A model generated the notes under the pieces. The model saw only the letters and a program-made list of their open reading frames with translations, ran no database searches and had not been told where the DNA came from. A program made the position numbers and the translations under genes. From the NCBI GenBank assembly GCA_050943415.1, contig JBMNPD010000004.1, positions 1-58,986 of the forward strand: a DNA stretch of 58,986 nt. The letters run 5' to 3'. The stretch comes from Candidatus Dojkabacteria bacterium (GTDB lineage Bacteria > Patescibacteriota > Dojkabacteria > SC72). Shown piece by piece: positions 7,297 to 26,866 of the stretch. How positions within the stretch are numbered: position 1 is the first letter of the stretch; every line of letters begins with the position of its first letter.

Positions 7297-7417
7297 ATAG
7301 TAACAATATTACAATACTAGAATAATAGTAGCACAAATTCGAAAACATTTCTTCATTTTTTGGATCTACTATGAAGAATTGTTAACTATTCAAATTAAGA
7401 ACTTCTAACTGCTATCT

Positions 7418-7960
7418 TTGTTAATCAGAATTTCATTTTCATTCTGTACAATCTGTATGGAAACAATATATCCATATATGATTAAAAGAAAAGTTCTAAT
7501 TAAAGTTAGAAGTATTAAAAATTCTTTTAGAAAAGAGTTAACATCTACTGTTGGCAATATAGATGTGAGTCAGAGAAAACCAAGTAAACATGAAATGAGT
7601 ATGGTAAAGGTTGTAGTGGAAAAGTTTGGTGGAGACATATTTTTTCTACAAGGTAAAGGAGATATAGGATTAAAAACACCCGATGCTATATGGTCGAGTC
7701 TTAAATTAGAAATTAAAAAAGCTACAGGTAAATCTAGTATAGATAGTCAAACAAGAAAAGGATTACAACAGATAAATGGAGATGGAGTAATACTTTTAGA
7801 TGTTAGTAACAATAAGAAAAGTGTGCGAGAGATTAGGAATAATGCTATACATAGAGTAAAAAGATATCTGCTTAGTAATCCTGTTGGTAAAGTGAATATC
7901 ATTATTGTTAAAAGAAAGAAAGTTGTTGATGTTTTGGAAATAAAAAAGGTGGAAGCTTAG
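7418..7960 (+). CDS. stand-alone PD-(D/E)xK nuclease-fold protein resembling CdiA-CT/polymorphic-toxin tRNase domains
   Basis: Contains KTPDAIWSSLKLEIKK (PD...ExK), then a Q...ILLD segment, an order seen in CdiA C-terminal tRNase-type toxin domains. The start is uncertain: TTG 7418, ATG 7457 or ATG 7478. Confidence 0.4.
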   Translation: MLIRISFSFCTICMETIYPYMIKRKVLIKVRSIKNSFRKELTSTVGNIDVSQRKPSKHEMSMVKVVVEKFGGDIFFLQGKGDIGLKTPDAIWSSLKLEIKKATGKSSIDSQTRKGLQQINGDGVILLDVSNNKKSVREIRNNAIHRVKRYLLSNPVGKVNIIIVKRKKVVDVLEIKKVEA

Positions 7961-18519: not shown

Positions 18520-20682
18520 ATGAAAATAGGTACTGCCTTAAAAACAATAATAGCTTCTCTTTTCTTTCTTCTTCCTTTCAATTGCTTTGCAGAGGATTTC
18601 AATGTAAATGTTACTGTTAGTGTAAATACAGATATTCATTCATATATAGAATTTGTTCCTCCAACTACAGAGATTTTGGCTCCATCTTTAGGACAAATAA
18701 CTATGGTAGATGGTAACGGTAATCCTAAAGTAGGAAGAAAAACTTTTGTTTACGTAAAAAGTAGTAATGGTGACAAGGTTACTATTACACAACCATCAGT
18801 TACAGACAGTTCTGGGAAAGCTACAGCAAGTATATATGCTTCTGCTAGCGGTGTGTATGAGGTATGTATTAGAGATATAACTGAAGCAACTCATATTGAA
18901 GTAGAGAAATGTTCTAATCTCTATGTTATTCCAACACCTCCTCCAGTAATGCAAACTGAGGAACCGTATACAGATGGTGATAGTAACACTGTTTCTTGGA
19001 CCCCGCAGGGTAGTTTAACATATCAATACTACGCTGAGGTTAGTACTGATCCTGATTTTACATCTGTAGTGAACAATAGTGGCTGGATTTCATCAACTAG
19101 TCATACATTTACAGGATTACAGGGAGGACAGATGTACTTCTACCGAGTAAAAGCTAGGAACGAATACGGAACAGAGAGTGGTTGGTCTAACTATGTGTAT
19201 TCTGCTCAGAGTGTAACTCCTCCTACGATTATGTTGGAGAAAATAACTGTTCCAGAGGATACATACATTAATTCATGGAATAAAGACTCAACTGTTACTT
19301 TTATATATAGGATAAATGATAAGTTGGGAGTATCGAGTGTGAAGTTTCTTTGTGTAAATGGTAATGGTACTAAAAGAGACTGTAATGCTAACATCAGTAG
19401 ACAGAATAATATCTATACAGTTACTCTTAAACTATCGAGTTTAGAGAAACAGCTAGATGGTTCTTCTCTCTTCCCATCATACTCTTTCTGTATGGAAGCA
19501 ACCAATGTTATTGGTACTAAATCATCTAACTGTACAGCTACAATTAACTTTGGTAAAAAAAGTAGTGGAGTAGTAGTAGATGATACAGAGGAAGTTATTA
19601 TGCCACCAGATTCTCCGTCTTTGCCAATTCCACAAAAACCTGAACATTCAGAATCAGGTGTAGGAATAATCTCATATATTACAGGTATTGCAGAAAAAAT
19701 TGTTGGATCGGTAATCTCTGCTTTGACTGAGCGAACGGAAGAAGAAGCACGAAATATTGCAATAACGTCATTAGCTCTTTCTGTACCAGTAGGAACTGCT
19801 CTGTTAACTACATTCATAACATCAATGCCTTACTTAGTAACTCAAATTGTTTTAGGTATCTTGACACTCTTTGGATTGAGAAAGAAAGGTGTTTTAAATG
19901 GATATGTCTACGATTCTTACTCTAAAGAACCTATTAAGCAAGCAATTGTTAGAGTGTTTAACAAAAAGAAAGAGTTGATTTGGACAGATGTTACTAATGG
20001 ACATGGGTATTTTAAAACTATAGATGTGGCGGATGGTCAGTACTATATAGAAGTAAGTGCCAATGGATATAAGTTCCCAACAACAACAGTTTTTGGTAGT
20101 ACAGATTTACCTATGGAAAACATATATCATGGAGGGCTTTTCTCGTCTTCAAATAACCGTATCCCTAAATTCTCTATTCCTTTAGATAGGGCTAAATCTA
20201 AAAAGATTACTGTATTTAAACAAAGATTCCTTAATTTATTTAAACTACTATTACATCTTGTTCATATTGCATTATTTATTGTTGGTTTAATATTTAGTAT
20301 ATACGCCGTTTATGTTAGTCCTACTGTCATTAATTACATAATATTATCTCTGTATATTCCATCAATTCTACTAATTATCTGGCCAATATTCAGTAAGAGA
20401 GAGAAGTACGGTATTGTTAGAGATGAGAAAGGTAACAGATTGGAGGGTATTAATATAGGTTTGTTTGAAGTAGATTTTAATAGATTAATATTGAAGCGTG
20501 TATCGGACAAGGAGGGAAGGTATAGATTTCTTGCTGATAGAGGAGAATATTACATATCAATTTTAAATCCAGAGTATTCACTAGTAGATAAGGAGAAATT
20601 GGCAAATATAGTTGTAAAAAAAGAGACAGGAGAGATGATTAGACCAGATATTACAGTTCAAAAGAATGTTAAAAAGGATTAA
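18520..20682 (+). CDS. large surface/membrane protein with Ig-like, FN3 and carboxypeptidase-regulatory-like domains
   Basis: Has a signal peptide and an FN3-like segment (SWTPQGSLTYQYYAEVS...YFYRVKARNEYG). There are mid-protein TM helices and two CarboxypepD_reg-like segments (GYVYDSYSKEPIKQAIVRV...; GIVRDEKGNRLEGINIGL...). Confidence 0.6.
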   Translation: MKIGTALKTIIASLFFLLPFNCFAEDFNVNVTVSVNTDIHSYIEFVPPTTEILAPSLGQITMVDGNGNPKVGRKTFVYVKSSNGDKVTITQPSVTDSSGKATASIYASASGVYEVCIRDITEATHIEVEKCSNLYVIPTPPPVMQTEEPYTDGDSNTVSWTPQGSLTYQYYAEVSTDPDFTSVVNNSGWISSTSHTFTGLQGGQMYFYRVKARNEYGTESGWSNYVYSAQSVTPPTIMLEKITVPEDTYINSWNKDSTVTFIYRINDKLGVSSVKFLCVNGNGTKRDCNANISRQNNIYTVTLKLSSLEKQLDGSSLFPSYSFCMEATNVIGTKSSNCTATINFGKKSSGVVVDDTEEVIMPPDSPSLPIPQKPEHSESGVGIISYITGIAEKIVGSVISALTERTEEEARNIAITSLALSVPVGTALLTTFITSMPYLVTQIVLGILTLFGLRKKGVLNGYVYDSYSKEPIKQAIVRVFNKKKELIWTDVTNGHGYFKTIDVADGQYYIEVSANGYKFPTTTVFGSTDLPMENIYHGGLFSSSNNRIPKFSIPLDRAKSKKITVFKQRFLNLFKLLLHLVHIALFIVGLIFSIYAVYVSPTVINYIILSLYIPSILLIIWPIFSKREKYGIVRDEKGNRLEGINIGLFEVDFNRLILKRVSDKEGRYRFLADRGEYYISILNPEYSLVDKEKLANIVVKKETGEMIRPDITVQKNVKKD

Positions 20683-22328
20683 CTTAAATCCTTATACATA
20701 TACAATTCTCCTTTAGCAAACGCATTTGATTTGTAATACTTCCTTGTTCCTATTGCAGATATAACTGATATTTTTGATATATTGTTTGCTTTTGTTACTT
20801 TTTCAGCTTCTTTAATTAACATTCTACCTAGACCTAAATGTTGAGATTCTCCATGACCTTTTTGTTTTAGTCCTACAATAGTACCGTAGACATGTATCTC
20901 TCTTACGATACTGCTACCGTTTAATTCTTCTATGAAATTATTACGAAGATACTCTGTTTTAGGAACAGATAATCTTAAAAATGCACAAAGCAAATCATCT
21001 TTTTTAGTTTTGTATGATATGAAGTACTCAGTAGAAACAGTTGTATTGTAGATGATACTCTCTAACTGCAAATCATCTCTATTTATTTCTCTACCTTTAA
21101 TCTCTCTACTTCGAATTTCATTAATCTTTACATTCTTCTCTTTTAGATTTCTCTCAACAATCTGTCTTAAGTTTGTAACCTTACTCCCTGCCTCTATCTC
21201 GTCTGAAGGAATGTCTCGAATAATTCTTGAAAGCCTACAGTATCTTGGAGTAGAAGCTATGTTACTCTCTAACACATCTATCAACTTACCAGTACTGTAT
21301 GGAATATACTTACCCTCATTATATAGCTTTGAAAGAGGAGTGTTTGGTATAACAGAGGTAGGATATATCTTTAGTTCATCAGGACAGAAATCCTTCTCCC
21401 ATAACTTTTTAAATCCTTCTTTATCAATCTCAGGAGTAGATTTGTACAAAGCTACCATCCAGTGACCATGAATTTTAAAACCAGCTCTTCTTAACAGAAA
21501 AAAAGCATTCTTTACTTCCCTGATACCTCTTCCTAAATTGTTCTGTTTAGCAATTTCATCTGAAAGAGTCTGAATACCAATCTGTACCTTAGTAGCACCA
21601 AGCCTTCTCATGGAGATAACTTCTTCCTTTGTTATACAATCAGGTCTTGTTTCAAACACTAATCCAACATTCCTACAGTAAGCCTCTTCATTTCTAACCT
21701 GATTCTTCTCTAACTTGCTCCATGTAGTTTCTTTAAAAGAATCTTTTTTAGGTATCACATACTCATTACTCTTTGCAGTAATATCATTCATTGCCTTAAA
21801 GCATTCATTAACAAACCAAATTCTGTAATCAAGAGGATATACAGACCAACTTCCACCAAGAACAATTAACTCTATCTTCTCAACATTATGTCCTGTCTTC
21901 TTTAGAGCAACTATTCTGTTAAATACCTGAGCGTACGGATCAAACTTACTTAGCAGAGCTCTTTGAGCACCTGGTTCTGAAGCGATATAGCTTTTAGGCA
22001 TATTAGGATCATTAGGACAGAAGATACATTTCCCTATACAAGGAAATGGTTTAGTCAGAACAGTTACTACAGCTACACCAGAATTACTTCTTGTAGGCTT
22101 TAGACGAATTCTGTTTTCTAAAACTTTATTCTTTTCTATAATTTTTTTTGAAACAAGAGCATTGTAAGCTTCTACTAATTCATCATTACGATATATTCTC
22201 TGCTTACTACTTTTATGCTTCCTCAAAAGCTTGTTGAGGGAATTTTTGTTCCATTTTTCAGTAGTAATTGAAAGTATCTCTTCGAATATTTTCTTAAATT
22301 TTTTAGTTTTTGTAGTATCTAAATTCAT
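20679..22328 (-). CDS. elp3: Elp3-type radical SAM/GNAT tRNA modification enzyme
   Basis: Has CIGKCIFC (CxxxCxxC) followed by PKSYIASEPGAQRA. The C-terminal GNAT box is QHLGLGRMLIKEAEK, and the 549-aa length fits Elp3. Confidence 0.8.
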   Translation of the reverse strand: MNLDTTKTKKFKKIFEEILSITTEKWNKNSLNKLLRKHKSSKQRIYRNDELVEAYNALVSKKIIEKNKVLENRIRLKPTRSNSGVAVVTVLTKPFPCIGKCIFCPNDPNMPKSYIASEPGAQRALLSKFDPYAQVFNRIVALKKTGHNVEKIELIVLGGSWSVYPLDYRIWFVNECFKAMNDITAKSNEYVIPKKDSFKETTWSKLEKNQVRNEEAYCRNVGLVFETRPDCITKEEVISMRRLGATKVQIGIQTLSDEIAKQNNLGRGIREVKNAFFLLRRAGFKIHGHWMVALYKSTPEIDKEGFKKLWEKDFCPDELKIYPTSVIPNTPLSKLYNEGKYIPYSTGKLIDVLESNIASTPRYCRLSRIIRDIPSDEIEAGSKVTNLRQIVERNLKEKNVKINEIRSREIKGREINRDDLQLESIIYNTTVSTEYFISYKTKKDDLLCAFLRLSVPKTEYLRNNFIEELNGSSIVREIHVYGTIVGLKQKGHGESQHLGLGRMLIKEAEKVTKANNISKISVISAIGTRKYYKSNAFAKGELYMYKDLS

Positions 22329-22378
22329 AATAATCTGGTATGCTTACTATTATCTAACATTTTAACGATTCTAGCTAT

Positions 22379-22990
22379 ATGAAAAAACCTAAAATGGCAT
22401 TAGAGAGAACATTGATTTTAATTAAACCTGATGTTTTACAAAGACAAATAGTAGGGGAAATACTGACAAGGTTTGAAAGGAAAGGTTTTAAGATGGTCGC
22501 TTTGAAGATGGTGAATGCTACAGAGGAGCAAGTTGGAAAGCACTATATTGATGATGAGGCGTATTTAATTGAGACAGGTTCAAAGGCTAAAAAAGGTGCT
22601 ATTGCTAGAGGAGAGGATGTTTCTAAGTGGAATTCATTGGAGAGAGGAAAGATTATTCGACAGAGAAATATTGATTATCTTACACAGGGTCCAATTATTG
22701 CACTGGTTTTAGAAGGGTTTGGAGTTGTTACTCAAGTCCGTAAGGTTCTTGGAGGAGCAAGTCCTGCAGATAGTGATATTGGTACAATTCGTGATGACTA
22801 CTCTTTAGATACATATGTTTTGGCAGATTATATTTCTAGGTCAACGAGAACTATGTTGCATGCTTCTGATAGTGTAGAGAATGCCGAGAGGGAGTTGAAG
22901 ATTTGGTTTAAGGAGAGTGAGATATGTAATAACTATGAGACAGGTGTGGAGAAGATTTTCTACGATGAGGGTTGGGACAAGAGGAAGTAG
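22379..22990 (+). CDS. ndk: nucleoside diphosphate kinase (long form with internal insertion)
   Basis: Has ERTLILIKPD and the catalytic His in MLHASDS. An insertion of about 50 aa makes it longer than the 140-150 aa of classical Ndk. Confidence 0.8.
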   Translation: MKKPKMALERTLILIKPDVLQRQIVGEILTRFERKGFKMVALKMVNATEEQVGKHYIDDEAYLIETGSKAKKGAIARGEDVSKWNSLERGKIIRQRNIDYLTQGPIIALVLEGFGVVTQVRKVLGGASPADSDIGTIRDDYSLDTYVLADYISRSTRTMLHASDSVENAERELKIWFKESEICNNYETGVEKIFYDEGWDKRK

Positions 22991-22993
22991 TGT

Positions 22994-23632
22994 ATGCTTC
23001 AGGTAAATGAATTACATGAAGAGTTTGATGCTCTTCAAAAGAAGTTTGGTTGTCCTACTTTGTCATCAATATACGGTGCAGGATGTATAGATTCTCCAGA
23101 TATTATGTTCATATTTATGAATCCAACAGGGAGAAATATTGCAAGTGTGAAGTCTTGGAAAGGTATCAGAGCTCAATGGATAGGAACCAAACAGGTATGG
23201 GATATCTTCTCAGAATTACAATTTCTTGATGAAGATATATACAGGAAGATTAAAAGTTACAAACCTGAGGAATGGAGTGAGGAGTTTGCAGAGAGAGTGT
23301 ATAAAGATATTTCTAATCATGGAGTATATATTACTAACTTAGCTAAATGTACGCAGATTGATGCAAGACCTTTGAAGAATAGTGTGTTTAAGGAATATTT
23401 AGATTTAATGAACAGAGAGATAGAGATTGTTAATCCTAAAAAGATTGTTTCTTTTGGAAATCAAGTATCAAGTATTTTGTTAGGAAAGAGTATTAGTGTA
23501 AGTAACTATCAGAATGATGAGAAAGAAGTACTTAATGGGTATGATGTATATCCAACATATTATCCAATTGGGCAAGGTAGAAGAAATATGCCTTTAGCTG
23601 TTAGAAGAATAAAGAGGGTGATGAGAGAGTAG
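22994..23632 (+). CDS. uracil-DNA glycosylase superfamily protein (MUG/SMUG-like xMNP motif)
   Basis: Has IFMNPTGRN in the motif-A position, then ITNLAKC, SFGNQVS and YYPIGQGRRN. Confidence 0.55.
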   Translation: MLQVNELHEEFDALQKKFGCPTLSSIYGAGCIDSPDIMFIFMNPTGRNIASVKSWKGIRAQWIGTKQVWDIFSELQFLDEDIYRKIKSYKPEEWSEEFAERVYKDISNHGVYITNLAKCTQIDARPLKNSVFKEYLDLMNREIEIVNPKKIVSFGNQVSSILLGKSISVSNYQNDEKEVLNGYDVYPTYYPIGQGRRNMPLAVRRIKRVMRE

Positions 23633-23648
23633 GTCTATGTGGGTGTTT

Positions 23649-24272
23649 TTACAATTTCAATATCTCATCAATTTCCTCTCTCTTTTTGAATACATTAGTT
23701 CCACTTTCAGGAATAGTAGATAGAAATTCTTTCAATGCCTTGAAATCTTTTTTCATTATCTCTTTTAAATTAGGATTGTAGAGAGAAGCTGCAGGATGAT
23801 ACATTGCAAATATTGGAATACCAGTAGGGTGTTTAAGTGCTTGACCATGTAAAATAGAAATATTTTCATCTGGTACAAACCTACCTAACGCATGCTTTCC
23901 CAATGTAACTATAACTTTCGGCTTGATAAACATTAACTCTGCATTTAACCATACCCTACAAGCATCTTTCTCATCTTCCTGTGGATCCCTGTTAGATGGA
24001 GGCCTGTATTTAACAATATTACTAACATATACCTCTTCCCTTGTATATCCAATACTTCTTAACAATTCATCTAAAAATTTCCCAGCAGCACCTACAAAAG
24101 GTCTACCTTGCAAATCCTCATTTTTACCAGGAGCTTCACCTATGAAAAGAATTCCAGACGAGGGTAAAGTTATTTCATATACAGGCTGTGTAGCAACATT
24201 CTTTAACTTACAACTATTATGAATTGCATAATACTCATGCAATTCCTTTATAGAGTCAAAATCTTTTTTCAT
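23649..24272 (-). CDS. udg: uracil-DNA glycosylase, family 4-like
   Basis: Has GEAPGKNEDLQGRPFVGAAGKFL, IVKYRPP and HPAASLYN. Start set at the ATG at 24272, which has a minus-strand TATAAT 7 nt upstream at 24285-24280. The ORF track extends to a TTG at 24335. Confidence 0.8.
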   Translation of the reverse strand: MKKDFDSIKELHEYYAIHNSCKLKNVATQPVYEITLPSSGILFIGEAPGKNEDLQGRPFVGAAGKFLDELLRSIGYTREEVYVSNIVKYRPPSNRDPQEDEKDACRVWLNAELMFIKPKVIVTLGKHALGRFVPDENISILHGQALKHPTGIPIFAMYHPAASLYNPNLKEIMKKDFKALKEFLSTIPESGTNVFKKREEIDEILKL

Positions 24273-24310
24273 TCGTACAATTATACATGAAAAAGGAAGT
24301 AGATGTTTTA

Positions 24311-24760
24311 TTAAACCTCTCCCTGAATACTCCAAAACGTAACTTGCCCTATATTCATATTAGGATAAATCTTGACAGGTAATACAGGATTAAGCATTAG
24401 AGTACATTGTTTAATAGAACCTAAATCTATCAAATCAGCTGTTATGTTCACAAAAATACCTAATCTACCTATCGAAGAACGCCCTTTGATTATGGGGACA
24501 TATTCATTACTACCAATGATCTCCTGAGTCTTACCTATATATATCTGATTAGGATCTAACAACAAACCCTCATTTGTAATAGTAACCTCCTCCATTTCAT
24601 TCTCTCCCCTAGCATCTAAAATATCACCCTTGTATATCTTTAATGTCGAATCTATGTGGAAGTCGTAAGAGTTAGCTTGAATATCATTTTCATTAAAAGG
24701 AGAAATAGTAATAGTTCCTTCCTTTACACATTTAATAATTTCTTTTCCTGTTAATATCAT
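24311..24760 (-). CDS. dcd: dCTP deaminase/dUTPase-fold protein, catalytic Glu replaced (TLML)
   Basis: Has MILTGKEI and GRSSIGRLG, but TLMLNP stands where deaminases carry TLE. Confidence 0.7.
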   Translation of the reverse strand: MILTGKEIIKCVKEGTITISPFNENDIQANSYDFHIDSTLKIYKGDILDARGENEMEEVTITNEGLLLDPNQIYIGKTQEIIGSNEYVPIIKGRSSIGRLGIFVNITADLIDLGSIKQCTLMLNPVLPVKIYPNMNIGQVTFWSIQGEV

Positions 24761-24762
24761 AA

Positions 24763-25281
24763 CTATAATCGCTTAAATAATTTACTTGGATATGGGGAAT
24801 TTTGAGTAGAGTAAAACTCTTCATTACCGTAATCAATTTCCCCTTTCGGTTGCCAGAAAGTAACCTTACCTACCTCCATAAACGGATAGATTCTAAGCTT
24901 TTTGATGACATGAATCTCTAAAGTCCATTTATGCGATTTACCTAACTGACCTAAATCTGCAGTAATTTGCAAGAACATCCCTAGTTTACCAATACTATTT
25001 CTTCCTGATAGCGATGTAACAAAATGTTGACTACCTATCTCTTCTACTGTTGTACCTAGATATAATTTGTTTGGTTCTAGTACAAAACCATCTTGTGGAA
25101 GAATTATCTCTTTAGTAAGAGGATCTTTGTTAATATCTCCTACCTCTATGATTTCTAATAGCTTGTTTTCAAGATGATAAATATAGCTATTTGGTGCAAG
25201 GCATTTCTCTTCAAAGGGAGAGATGATAATTCTGCCAGATTCAACTTCTTTTTTTATTTCTTTTCCAGTTAAAATACTTAT
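24763..25281 (-). CDS. dCTP deaminase paralogue without a canonical start codon
   Basis: The frame is open from the stop at 25332-25330 down to TAG at 24763-24765. It translates as (I)SILTGKEIKKEVESGRIIISPF...GRNSIGKLG...WTLEIHV. There is no in-frame ATG/GTG/TTG before the internal Met at 24978. Candidate starts are ATA 25281 and ATT 25275. Confidence 0.6.
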   Translation of the reverse strand: MSILTGKEIKKEVESGRIIISPFEEKCLAPNSYIYHLENKLLEIIEVGDINKDPLTKEIILPQDGFVLEPNKLYLGTTVEEIGSQHFVTSLSGRNSIGKLGMFLQITADLGQLGKSHKWTLEIHVIKKLRIYPFMEVGKVTFWQPKGEIDYGNEEFYSTQNSPYPSKLFKRL

Positions 25282-25325
25282 CTTTAAGGTTGATGAATAA
25301 CTTATTATATAAAGAACTATAGCAG

Positions 25326-25347
25326 ATATTTAAGAAATATTTAAGAA
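25326..25347. repeat. perfect 2 x 11-nt tandem repeat ATATTTAAGAA
   Basis: Copies are at 25326-25336 and 25337-25347. It lies just upstream (minus-strand sense) of a TATAAT at 25309-25304 and of the dcd paralogue. Confidence 0.8.
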
Positions 25348-25675
25348 GCTATGAGTTGGAATATGGTTATTTATCATCTTCACATCTAGTAAGTGTGTAT
25401 ATCTTGATTTAATAAATGAAAAGTAAAAAATATTGAAAATAGTTTTAAATATTTAGAAAGTTATGGATAGGTAATTTATTTGGTAAAGAAATCCTCTAGG
25501 AGAAATGTTTGCTATTGAAAGCATATGAATAAAATCATACATTTCTCCTAGTTTAAGTCTTGGCTTTCGGTGTTATACTTTTGCACTATCTCTGTAGGAC
25601 CTTAACCGAAAGTCAAGTTTGTTGTAAGAATGGATGGAAAGGAGGTGGCACATATATCAAGAAAGGAGGTGGTGT

Positions 25676-25720
25676 ATGGTTCACCAAAAACAAAAAAACT
25701 TTTCCTTCCCCTCTGCTTAA
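25676..25720 (+). CDS. 14-codon micro-ORF behind a near-perfect Shine-Dalgarno sequence
   Basis: GAAAGGAGGTGG (25661-25672) precedes the ATG at 25676. The ORF encodes MVHQKQKNFSFPSA and ends at TAA 25718-25720. Confidence 0.2.
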   Translation: MVHQKQKNFSFPSA

Positions 25721-25771
25721 ATCAAGAAGATTAAGCAATCATTCTTACTACGATAGTCAGTACTCTATCAC

Positions 25772-25796
25772 AAATAGTGGTCTTTTGCCACTATTT
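25772..25796. terminator. bidirectional-looking terminator hairpin overlapping the stop of the 25791 gene
   Basis: AAATAGTGG (25772-25780) pairs with CCACTATTT (25788-25796) around a 7-nt loop. T-rich sequence follows on both strands. Confidence 0.5.
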
Positions 25797-26291
25797 TCTA
25801 GCTTTCTGAGCCTTTCGTATATTTGTTTTCCAAGCTTTTTTCTGTGCATCTGTAGGTTTATCTTTTTCTGGGATATTTTTTTCTGGCTTTGCTTTGAAAA
25901 TATCTCCTTTAACATGCTCAGGTTTTGATCCCAAACTTTTTAGCAGCTTTCTTACAGATGGAGAACTGCTTCTTAAGGTGTTACCGTATTTTTGTGCAAT
26001 ATCTTTAGAAATTAACCAAGCTTGTGTAGCCCATGAGCCACTAGTTCTTCTTCCTGTTACTCTTTCTAATCCTCCTTTTTCTCCAACATCATGTACTTTA
26101 AAAGATGTGAATTGGTGCTTATCTCTTATTTCTATCCTAAAGAATTTACCTTTTCCTGTACTACCTGGTTTCTTTCTTTTTCTTCCTTCAGGTTGTGCTA
26201 AAGTTCTTTGTCTTTTTGTCATACTCTTCCATTTTTGTTGTGCTTTTTTAATATTTTGTTTTGCTGCTTTTATTTGTTTTTTAGTTGCCAT
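25791..26291 (-). CDS. highly basic protein of unknown function
   Basis: Start set at the ATG at 26291 (MATKKQIKAAKQNIKKAQQKW...). The Lys/Arg-rich N and C termini resemble each other (KKQIKAAKQNIKKAQ versus QKKAWKTNIRKAQKARK) and flank a globular core. Confidence 0.55.
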   Translation of the reverse strand: MATKKQIKAAKQNIKKAQQKWKSMTKRQRTLAQPEGRKRKKPGSTGKGKFFRIEIRDKHQFTSFKVHDVGEKGGLERVTGRRTSGSWATQAWLISKDIAQKYGNTLRSSSPSVRKLLKSLGSKPEHVKGDIFKAKPEKNIPEKDKPTDAQKKAWKTNIRKAQKARK

Positions 26292-26378: not shown

Positions 26379-26413
26379 TCTATAGGTCGTTCAAAATTTA
26401 TAAGGAGGTGTAC

Positions 26414-26866
26414 ATGAAGAATATTTTGCCAGAATTGGTAAACAAGGAAACCAAGACAGTGACGAACAGATTTAAAGGCTTTTCTAGACCTTTGCTTGGT
26501 TATGATATAGGAAATGGGAAAGTTCTGTATAATTTGACAGGGAGTCCTGTGGAGGTCGTTTTTGCTAATAATGCAAGAACGGTAGAAGCTTCTTGTTATA
26601 TTGCGAATATACGTATGCGTGAAAACAGAAATGTTGATACGCATCATATTGGTACACTTTTGGCACATAGTGTTGAACACTATGTTAAGGATCTTCCTGC
26701 TGAAGATGGAACTTCTTTGTTTATTGTATCCAGAGATGTCTTTCTATTTTGTAAAGAGCGAAAAGATTTATTAACCTTTTCAGAAAGGCAAGGTGACAGG
26801 ATTACAGATTCTGAAGATAATCTGATAGGTTCCCTTTCTTTACAAGGAAGATTTTTAAATGAATAA
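26414..26866 (+). CDS. hypothetical protein, paralogue of the 28928 gene
   Basis: Start moved to the ATG at 26414 behind the SD AAGGAGGTG. The C-terminal signature LFIVSRDV...DRITDSEDNLIGSLSLQ matches LFLIDKEV...DRIYNNRGGLVGVKYLQ in the 28928 product. Confidence 0.6.
   Translation: MKNILPELVNKETKTVTNRFKGFSRPLLGYDIGNGKVLYNLTGSPVEVVFANNARTVEASCYIANIRMRENRNVDTHHIGTLLAHSVEHYVKDLPAEDGTSLFIVSRDVFLFCKERKDLLTFSERQGDRITDSEDNLIGSLSLQGRFLNE

Follow-up and report, generated by a model that had tools for sequence, protein, structure and literature searches.

A Conserved Structured RNA Element Beside a Basic-Protein Gene

A gap of ~0.5 kb in the DNA of a Candidatus Dojkabacteria bacterium was found to contain a structured, evolutionarily conserved RNA element. 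The stretch analyzed, hereafter the window, is 58,986 nt long (GCA_050943415.1, contig JBMNPD010000004.1; all positions are those of the whole window, forward strand), has a G+C content of 31% and is assigned by its protein matches to a genome of the Dojkabacteria (WS6, Candidate Phyla Radiation (CPR)). The gap lies between two minus-strand genes, that of a very basic, lysine-rich protein of 166 amino acids (25791-26291; hereafter the basic protein) and a dCTP-deaminase-like (dcd) paralog that begins near 25281. Three diverged lineages, all of one narrow clade of Dojkabacteria, have conserved its structured part next to the basic-protein gene, and this part is outside every described RNA family. 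Based on its sequence, we hypothesize that this part is a clade-specific small RNA (sRNA) gene on the minus strand, co-directional with the basic-protein gene and immediately downstream of it, a reading that we hold with moderate confidence. A CU-rich motif of the predicted RNA, which resembles the anti-Shine-Dalgarno (anti-SD) tail of 16S rRNA, is probably a seed for pairing with ribosome-binding sites (RBSs).

The stems, direct repeat, micro-open reading frame (micro-ORF) and hairpins that an earlier sequence-only reading had described in the gap are all present, and they exceed what is expected by chance with respect to both folding and SD matches. Stem a is a perfect stem of 13 bp (25496-25508 / 25539-25551) that can be extended to 21-nt arms at 86% complementarity, and stem b has 13 bp including one G-T (25559-25571 / 25605-25617). 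They are followed by a 12-nt direct repeat, GAAAGGAGGTGG, at 25637-25648 and 25661-25672, and by an ATG at 25676 that opens MVHQKQKNFSFPSA, the stop codon of which (25718-25720) is inside a perfect 7-bp hairpin, TGCTTAA/TTAAGCA. A further helix that the earlier reading had not listed, stem c, encloses the repeat region with 12-nt arms and is among the best-supported helices of the element. Overall, the region 25480-25810 folds far better than dinucleotide shuffles of itself (z = -5.3 on the plus strand and -4.65 on the minus strand). Of all matches to the canonical anti-SD complement in the 59-kb window, those of the two GAAAGGAGGTG(G) copies of the repeat are the longest, with 11 and 12 nt of AGAAAGGAGGTGATC as against 9 nt for the next best; the duplex energies of the copies with the 16S tail are -21 to -23 kcal/mol (the tail was taken as canonical; the 16S gene lies outside the window). 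The real genes of the window also use long SDs, the strongest genuine one being AAGGAGGTG-TAC-ATG at 26402 (26402-26416, plus strand).

Comparison with known RNA families gave no match for the element. When the window was searched with Rfam 15, the gathering score was reached by four tRNAs only, and at E<=10 the region 25150-25950 had only sub-threshold chance matches on both strands, as had the loci of three relatives (L102, L090 and L008). ARAGORN found the 4 tRNAs and no tmRNA in the window. These searches bear out the earlier reading, in which no riboswitch, RNase P, SRP, tmRNA or 6S consensus had been recognized.

Conservation and Covariation among Relatives

The gap was 100% identical in five other metagenome contigs (sources SRR31066179, ERZ773285, JGI 3300009680 and 3300026311, which are anaerobic-digester samples), and such identical copies hold no information on variation. 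Our comparisons were of three independent lineages that have the element: the window, L009, and a group of relatives that we call clade C (L010/L090/L102/L105). The closest diverged relative is L007/L009, the basic protein of which is 81% identical to that of the window. Across the lineages the 13-bp base of stem a, CTCTAGGAGAAAT/ATTTCTCCTAGAG, is invariant and its apical part differs. The outer stem of hairpin b has changed fully between lineages yet is still paired, and the sequence of its inner hairpin and loop has been kept. Stem c has equal geometry in all lineages, i.e., 9 bp, one mismatch and 2 bp, with four positions fully compensated (GUAAGAAUG/CAUUCUUAC in the window, UUGGUGGUG/CACCAUUAA in L009 and UUGAGAGUG/CACUCUCAA in clade C). 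To count covariation, six distinct sequences were realigned with a covariance model of hairpins a and b. Changes on both sides were observed in 6 pairs, compared to 2.0 +/- 1.1 in shuffles (0/500 reached 6) and 0-3 when partners were slid. Compensatory substitutions thus preserve the secondary structure of helices b and c, as is expected of an sRNA gene.

In all of these lineages the structured block abuts the 3' end of the basic-protein gene, and it is the neighbor on the other side that varies. L007 aligns with the window in two blocks (window 26398-25485 with L007 3796-4721, and window 25444-24312 with L007 7220-8358), between which L007 has three genes on the opposite strand that encode a 152-aa membrane-anchored protein, a response regulator and a histidine kinase. 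In place of this operon, L010, L090, L102/L011 and L105-L110 have only a 149-aa homolog. The upstream plus-strand gene of the relatives stops 5-15 nt before stem a. To judge from these alignments, the window has lost the convergent gene or genes by deletion, and the promoter region (25282-25444) and an ATG GAT AGG TAA stump remain. The deletion scar is at 25445-25487, and the deletion ended just outside the U-tract of stem a. In the distant relatives L114 and L115 the three-gene operon is present, and both the element and the basic-protein gene are absent from that site.

The distribution of the element was searched with nhmmer and the covariance model of hairpins a and b in 97 sources (512 kb), including ~80 loci of basic-protein homologs from CPR, DPANN and other phyla. 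Matches were found only within the clade, with no second copy in the window and none in ~90 other loci. A metagenome scan contributed one of the lineage copies and look-ups via the 149-aa protein contributed L105-L110; look-ups via distant homologs of that protein led to loci without the element. Viral contigs were scanned twice by pattern, with three 16-mer matches at the level of chance and without the inverted repeat in one scan and zero in the other. The suggestion that the gap holds the leader or relic of a mobile element was rejected on these results: the window has a single copy, the 97 sources have none outside the clade, and the viral matches are at the level of chance. The element is, rather, conserved in a few close relatives and has a narrow taxonomic range.

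The Predicted Minus-Strand RNA

Expression signals favor the minus strand as the one that is transcribed. A promoter scan of two relatives found GTGACA-17-TATACT preceded by TG, with a score of 10/12, at homologous positions just past the basic-protein stop codon. The hexamers and the TG of this GTGACA-17-TGnTATACT site are invariant in L009, L090, L010, L102 and L105, and its spacer sequence differs among L009, L102, L105 and the identical pair L090/L010. The counterpart in the window is GTGGCA (25791-25786)-18-TGA-TAGAGT (25767-25762), i.e., GTGGCA-18-TGATAGAGT. Such promoters are also present at the tRNA-Asp gene (TTGTCA-17-TGnTATACT) and the tRNA-Leu gene (TTGATA-17-TATAAT) of the window, and the promoter type is therefore in use in this genome.

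At the other end of the block, every lineage has a U-rich run (AUUUCUUU, UUUUCUUUC or AUUUUUUC) behind stem a when the minus strand is read, and the stem and the run together are a predicted intrinsic terminator. This also explains the A-rich run that is conserved before stem a on the plus strand, on which no terminator is conserved in clade C. A simple terminator scanner did not flag stem a and its U-tract, likely because it accepted loops of 3-8 nt only. The promoter and terminator signals bracket the conserved block exactly, with the predicted start a few bases before stem c, and motifs for a promoter directly upstream of a conserved block and for an intrinsic terminator behind it are what an sRNA gene would be expected to have. 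The sequence-only reading had assumed the plus strand for the features of the gap; the conserved signals point to the opposite one.

If so, an extended -10 promoter of the sigma-70 type, beginning at the stop codon of the basic-protein gene, would drive transcription from near 25755 to an end near 25483, at stem a and the U-tract. The RNA would consist, in order, of a 5' domain closed by stem c, hairpin b and the terminator hairpin a. Within the 5' domain, a purine tract is predicted to pair with one CU-rich motif, which would leave CAU-N5-6-CCUCC(UUUCU) single-stranded, and this exposed motif may base-pair with the SD and start codon of an mRNA, or of several, and block initiation there. Minimum free energy (MFE) folds of the minus-strand RNAs of the window, L090 and L009 (z = -4.2 to -4.7) concur: in all three the purine tract is predicted to pair with the 3'-proximal CU motif, and CAU...CCUCC is predicted to be in a large loop. 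CAU-N5-6-CCUCC is itself conserved across the lineages, with a spacer that differs among them; the matching spacer of a target RBS would be GGUGGUGU in the window, GAAUUU in clade C and AGUAAU in L009. The SD mimics of the plus strand read on the minus strand as CCACCUCCUUUC, i.e., as anti-SD motifs like the 16S tail. The exposed motif as a whole is the mirror image of an RBS (SD plus AUG) and is complementary to a generic strong RBS; it matches the canonical 16S 3' tail exactly in the window and in clade C.

Several observations weigh against an sRNA of this kind on the minus strand. The covariation statistics are thin and of modest power, as there are only three independent lineages and all are close relatives. 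Secondary structure is neutral with regard to strand: alifold over the same columns gave -36.6 for the minus and -34.0 for the plus strand, the minus reading has 14 G-U pairs versus 11 that would be G-U on the plus strand, and the per-helix energies are mixed. (A first G-U tally, of about 7 to 1 for the plus strand, was biased because the helices had been defined on that strand, and the criterion was abandoned.) The choice of strand therefore depends on the expression motifs, and the promoter of the window is weaker than those of its relatives, with 4/6 matches per hexamer and an 18-nt spacer. An SD and AUG at the correct spacing in every lineage are equally expected of a translation start on the plus strand. 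Finally, the search for targets, which was confined to the window and the loci of the relatives, found no convincing one. Duplexes of each sRNA with the RBS of its cognate neighbor gene were no better than non-cognate ones; no gene of the window has a stronger SD than the one used for this test, the divergent neighbor of the basic-protein gene. The seed complement, GGAGGTGGTGTATGG, has a single near-match in the window, the RBS GGAAGTAGTGTATGC (22983-22997, plus strand) of a uracil-DNA glycosylase (UDG)-family gene (212 aa, start 22994), in which the ATG is aligned and three bases are substituted; for a 15-mer with 3 substitutions, ~1.5 such matches are expected by chance. The UDG-family RBS at 22994 is a possible lead to a target at that level.

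A related idea, to which we attach very little probability, is that the RNA mimics the 3' end of 16S rRNA and acts as a decoy, either titrating SD sequences globally or binding a factor that recognizes the anti-SD tail (a nuclease, methyltransferase or initiation factor). The window has a short hairpin, GGUGAACCAUACACC, with ACCUCCUUUCU behind it and a second CCACCUCCUUUCC 24 nt away, an arrangement that may resemble 16S helix 45 and the anti-SD tail. The basic protein encoded immediately upstream is a possible partner of such an RNA. If true, this mimic would set the level of SD-dependent initiation in a CPR bacterium of reduced genome.

The Micro-ORF and the SD Repeat

Every lineage has an SD and then an ATG at the same place. 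The arrangement is AGAAAGGAGG-TGGTGT-ATG in the window, where the ORF has 14 codons, GAGGAG-TAAT-ATG in L009 (24 codons), and AGAAAGGAGG-AATTT-ATG throughout clade C, where the ORF has 30 codons in L010 and L090, 39 in L102 and 3 in L105. The bases in common, ACCGACGGT(C/T)ACCTTC, fall in different frames in L010 and L102, and a six-frame comparison across lineages found no conserved peptide in any frame on either strand. Given this variable length and frame and the lack of a conserved peptide, the micro-ORF is not a gene. A small protein was rejected as an explanation of the element, since the six-frame matches were short, lay over the invariant bases of stem a and occurred in several frames and on both strands. 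A type I toxin mRNA or a dual-function sRNA was rejected because the small ORF is conserved in neither sequence, frame nor length. The earlier description of the gap as having no credible ORF thus holds, in that no ORF within it is conserved, and of its proposal of an independent sRNA or dual-function RNA the sRNA best fits the evidence and the dual function does not. A 41-codon ORF with a TTG start on the minus strand (25613-25738) reads the two CCACCTCCTTTC copies as PPPF twice. Polyproline stretches of the PPPF type are classic EF-P-dependent stalling motifs. This ORF is not conserved in the relatives and is probably fortuitous.

Comparison of the lineages also altered the view of the SD mimic as a duplicated one. 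Its copies in the window are, as described above, the strongest anti-SD matches there, but the exact 12-nt duplication is confined to the window, and the relatives have one strong and one degenerate copy. The degenerate copy is the first one, which reads AAAGGAGA, GAAGAAGAA or AAGGG. In every lineage a pyrimidine tract farther downstream is complementary to this first purine segment, and one compensatory change is seen within clade C.

Alternative Explanations for the Element

The main alternative to a minus-strand sRNA places the functional RNA on the plus strand. On this view, which is possible but in our opinion doubtful, the element would form a structured 3' end for the convergent unit (the 149-aa gene or the response regulator-histidine kinase operon) and be orphaned in the window behind that unit's surviving promoter. 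The stop codon of the relatives' upstream gene just before stem a, the retention in the window of the promoter region and start codon of the convergent unit, and a good hairpin with a T-run at 25772-25803 in the window are consistent with this. It would carry a real initiation site, a very strong SD and an AUG, at which occupancy by 30S or 70S ribosomes matters and the peptide does not. The SD might then stabilize the RNA as STAB-SD elements do, or it might be part of a switch between two pairings of the downstream CU tract, one with the first purine motif and one with the second. That an SD-N4-6-AUG is conserved in all lineages and that the copies of the window pair so extensively with the 16S tail support such a site, for which there is precedent in the STAB-SD, an SD-like sequence to which 30S binds and which blocks RNase J1 but does not direct translation (PMC4113751). 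The MFE of the whole element was also lower on the plus than on the minus strand in 3/4 versions folded, a comparison that used a mononucleotide shuffle. A plus-strand RNA leaves unexplained, however, the A-tract before stem a and the invariant promoter hexamers, and it would have no conserved terminator in clade C. The ORF of L105 has just 3 codons and elsewhere the ORF enters the antisense of the basic-protein gene; STAB-SD elements act near the 5' end of an RNA rather than in its 3' region. Furthermore, the 5' neighbor of a plus-strand RNA is variable (a promoter, the 149-aa gene or the histidine kinase gene), whereas the link to the basic-protein gene is constant. A ribosome-binding decoy, as the sequence-only reading had envisaged, is in our view reduced to a minority explanation.

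It is unlikely, though conceivable, that both strands are transcribed and that the minus-strand RNA is a cis-antisense partner of read-through from the convergent operon, which has no good terminator of its own. The duplex would control the operon through RNase III, and in the window, where the operon has been lost, the RNA would be a leftover. The convergent geometry, with the stop codon of the operon abutting stem a, would suit such a role, and only a weak U-tract is found behind stem a when the plus strand is read. The element is also restricted to the clade in which the operon and the basic-protein gene adjoin, L114 and L115 having the operon without either. Yet all helices are intact in the window although the operon is gone, and the compensatory changes point to a selected intramolecular structure, which a pure antisense RNA does not need. 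We regard as very unlikely an origin without dedicated function, in which terminator hairpins accumulated between convergent genes next to the decayed start of a lost gene. The narrow distribution, the junk ORF and the position between two convergent stop codons are what such an origin would produce, but it does not account for the full compensation of helices b and c across lineages, the conserved loop sequence of b, promoter hexamers that are invariant over a variable spacer, or folds ~4-5 standard deviations below shuffles (the window on both strands, and the minus-strand RNA of three lineages).

Comparison with Known Regulatory RNAs

The C-rich-seed sRNAs of Firmicutes block initiation by pairing with SD/start-codon regions. 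The predicted RNA resembles such RNAs with C-rich or anti-SD seeds (Staphylococcus aureus RNAIII and RsaE, with their UCCC motifs, and Bacillus subtilis RoxS) in being a structured sRNA with its own promoter, an intrinsic terminator and more than one CU-rich, SD-complementary motif per RNA. It differs from them in having no sequence or structure homology and no Rfam match, in containing the full CCUCCUUUCU of the 16S tail with a CAU at start-codon spacing, in its greater length of ~270 nt and in its CPR host. The sRNAs of the DapZ/MicL type, which are Hfq-dependent, enterobacterial and 80-150 nt long, are similar in that they derive from 3' untranslated regions (UTRs) and have their own promoter at or overlapping the end of the upstream ORF, on the same strand and with a common terminator. 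Hfq dependence, an enterobacterial host and shorter length set them apart, and the element has no homology to them.

The mechanism of the UCCC motif has been described (PMC3868564), as has the anti-SD element in the 3'-UTR of the S. aureus icaR mRNA, a pyrimidine motif a few hundred nt past the stop codon (PMC3868564). Read-through of the basic-protein mRNA would make the element its 3'-UTR in just this way. In icaR the motif pairs with the SD of the very mRNA that carries it, whereas no GGAGG-like SD was found upstream of the basic-protein gene in the window, L090 or L007. The element also has a promoter-like site of its own. The resemblance to the C-rich sRNAs and to icaR is thus a comparison of mechanism, by analogy, and does not imply family membership. 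Only when the plus strand is read is there a likeness to the STAB-SD of B. thuringiensis cry3A, an SD-like purine motif that pairs with the 16S 3' end without a productive ORF (PMC4113751). The element does contain an SD-like sequence with exact complementarity to the canonical 16S 3' end over 11-12 nt. The STAB-SD lies toward the 5' end of an mRNA leader and shields the long coding region that follows, whereas downstream of the element on the plus strand there are only ~130 nt and a convergent gene.

Features of the Gap and Neighboring Genes

Table 1. Positions of the features of the gap. Within hairpins and paired motifs the minus strand is that of the predicted sRNA, the ends of which are inferred rather than mapped.
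Feature	Position	Strand	Remarks
Structured part of gap	about 25483-25803		
Predicted sRNA, ~273 nt	25483-25755	-	Start taken as ~7 nt past the -10, end as that of the U-tract; fold z = -4.17; same architecture in relatives
-35-like hexamer GTGGCA	25786-25791	-	GTGACA in all relatives; overlaps last base of basic-protein stop codon; L090/L009 site scores 10/12 with TG
Extended -10 TGA-TAGAGT	25762-25770	-	TGn-TATACT in relatives; 18 nt past the -35; same promoter type at tRNA-Asp
Stem c, 5' arm	25740-25751	-	Pairs with 25621-25632; 4/9 core pairs fully compensated across three lineages
Purine tract GAGGGGAAGGAAAAG	25698-25713	-	Predicted to pair with CU motif R1'; one compensatory change in clade C, GACC/GGUC to AACC/GGUU
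Exposed motif CAUACACCACCUCCUUUCU, proposed seed	25660-25678	-	Reverse complement of second SD copy and ATG; unpaired in MFE folds of three lineages
CU motif R1' CCACCUCCUUUCC	25635-25648	-	Reverse complement of first SD copy; predicted paired with purine tract; degenerate in relatives
Stem c, 3' arm	25621-25632	-	Pairs with 25740-25751
Hairpin b	25559-25617	-	Covarying outer stem; conserved inner hairpin and loop, GCUAUCNCNGUAGCAUUUURAC on plus strand
Hairpin a	25496-25551	-	13-bp base invariant in all lineages, apical part variable; proposed intrinsic terminator stem
U-rich tail AUUUCUUUAC after stem a	25483-25492	-	UUUUCUUUC or AUUUUUUC in relatives
Remnant start ATG GAT AGG TAA	25463-25474	+	Stump of deleted 149/152-aa gene converging on the element
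14-codon micro-ORF	25676-25720	+	Not conserved as coding sequence
9-bp hairpin (arms 25772-25780 / 25788-25796)	25772-25796		Covers basic-protein stop codon, overlaps -35; poorly conserved in relatives
Divergent promoter/5' region in common with relatives	25282-25444		Within block ~76% identical overall to L007 7220-8358

The dcd paralog begins near 25281/25275, as had been reported from the sequence alone, and it has no canonical start codon. It is an intact frame of 172 codons (24763-25281, minus strand) with a Pfam DCD match from residue 3 and no ATG, GTG or TTG start, and gene callers give only a C-terminal piece of 71-73 aa. Its 5' end reads ATA AGT ATT TTA in the window and ATA AGC ATA CTA in L007 (about 7400-7913). 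At the same position the distant relatives L114 and L115 have ATG ATA CTT/TTA (MILTGKEI), and the ATG was therefore lost in the clade of the window and L007. The paralog either starts at a non-canonical ATA/ATT or is decaying. On the opposite strand inside it, a weak tRNA-like covariance-model match (25177-25258, plus strand; 20.6 bits, E = 0.16, below the gathering score) was not called by ARAGORN and is most likely due to chance. Beyond the dcd paralog lies a conserved cluster for nucleotide metabolism and repair (20679-24760) that is also present in L105, L114 and L115; it comprises an ELP3-like radical-SAM gene, NDK, family-4 UDG gene(s) and two tandem dcd paralogs, and the number of UDG genes, one or two, varies by lineage.

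The basic protein had no Pfam, NCBIfam or PDB sequence match. Its family has >500 members, 50-80% identical, in CPR bacteria, DPANN archaea, Chloroflexota, Planctomycetota, Proteobacteria and Coprothermobacter, and is thus strikingly conserved, widely scattered and uncharacterized. For the divergent neighbor gene on the plus strand the listed start is a GTG at 26408; a likelier one is the ATG at 26414, which is preceded by AAGGAGGTG. Its protein of ~150 aa has no family match.

Implications for Dojkabacteria

To our knowledge, no regulatory sRNA has been characterized in the CPR, the organisms of which are uncultured. The element is limited in its reach, as only a handful of closely related genomes carry it. 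As read from its sequence, it is a new RNA family of a familiar kind, i.e., a structured sRNA defined by promoter and terminator signals and with an anti-SD-like seed, in a phylum for which we know of none characterized. The locus is a compact candidate, in which a predicted promoter, a predicted terminator, covarying helices and a predicted exposed motif identical to the anti-SD tail are found together. It also suggests that what looks like a perfect SD, ATG and micro-ORF in non-coding DNA may in fact mirror an antisense seed encoded on the opposite strand.

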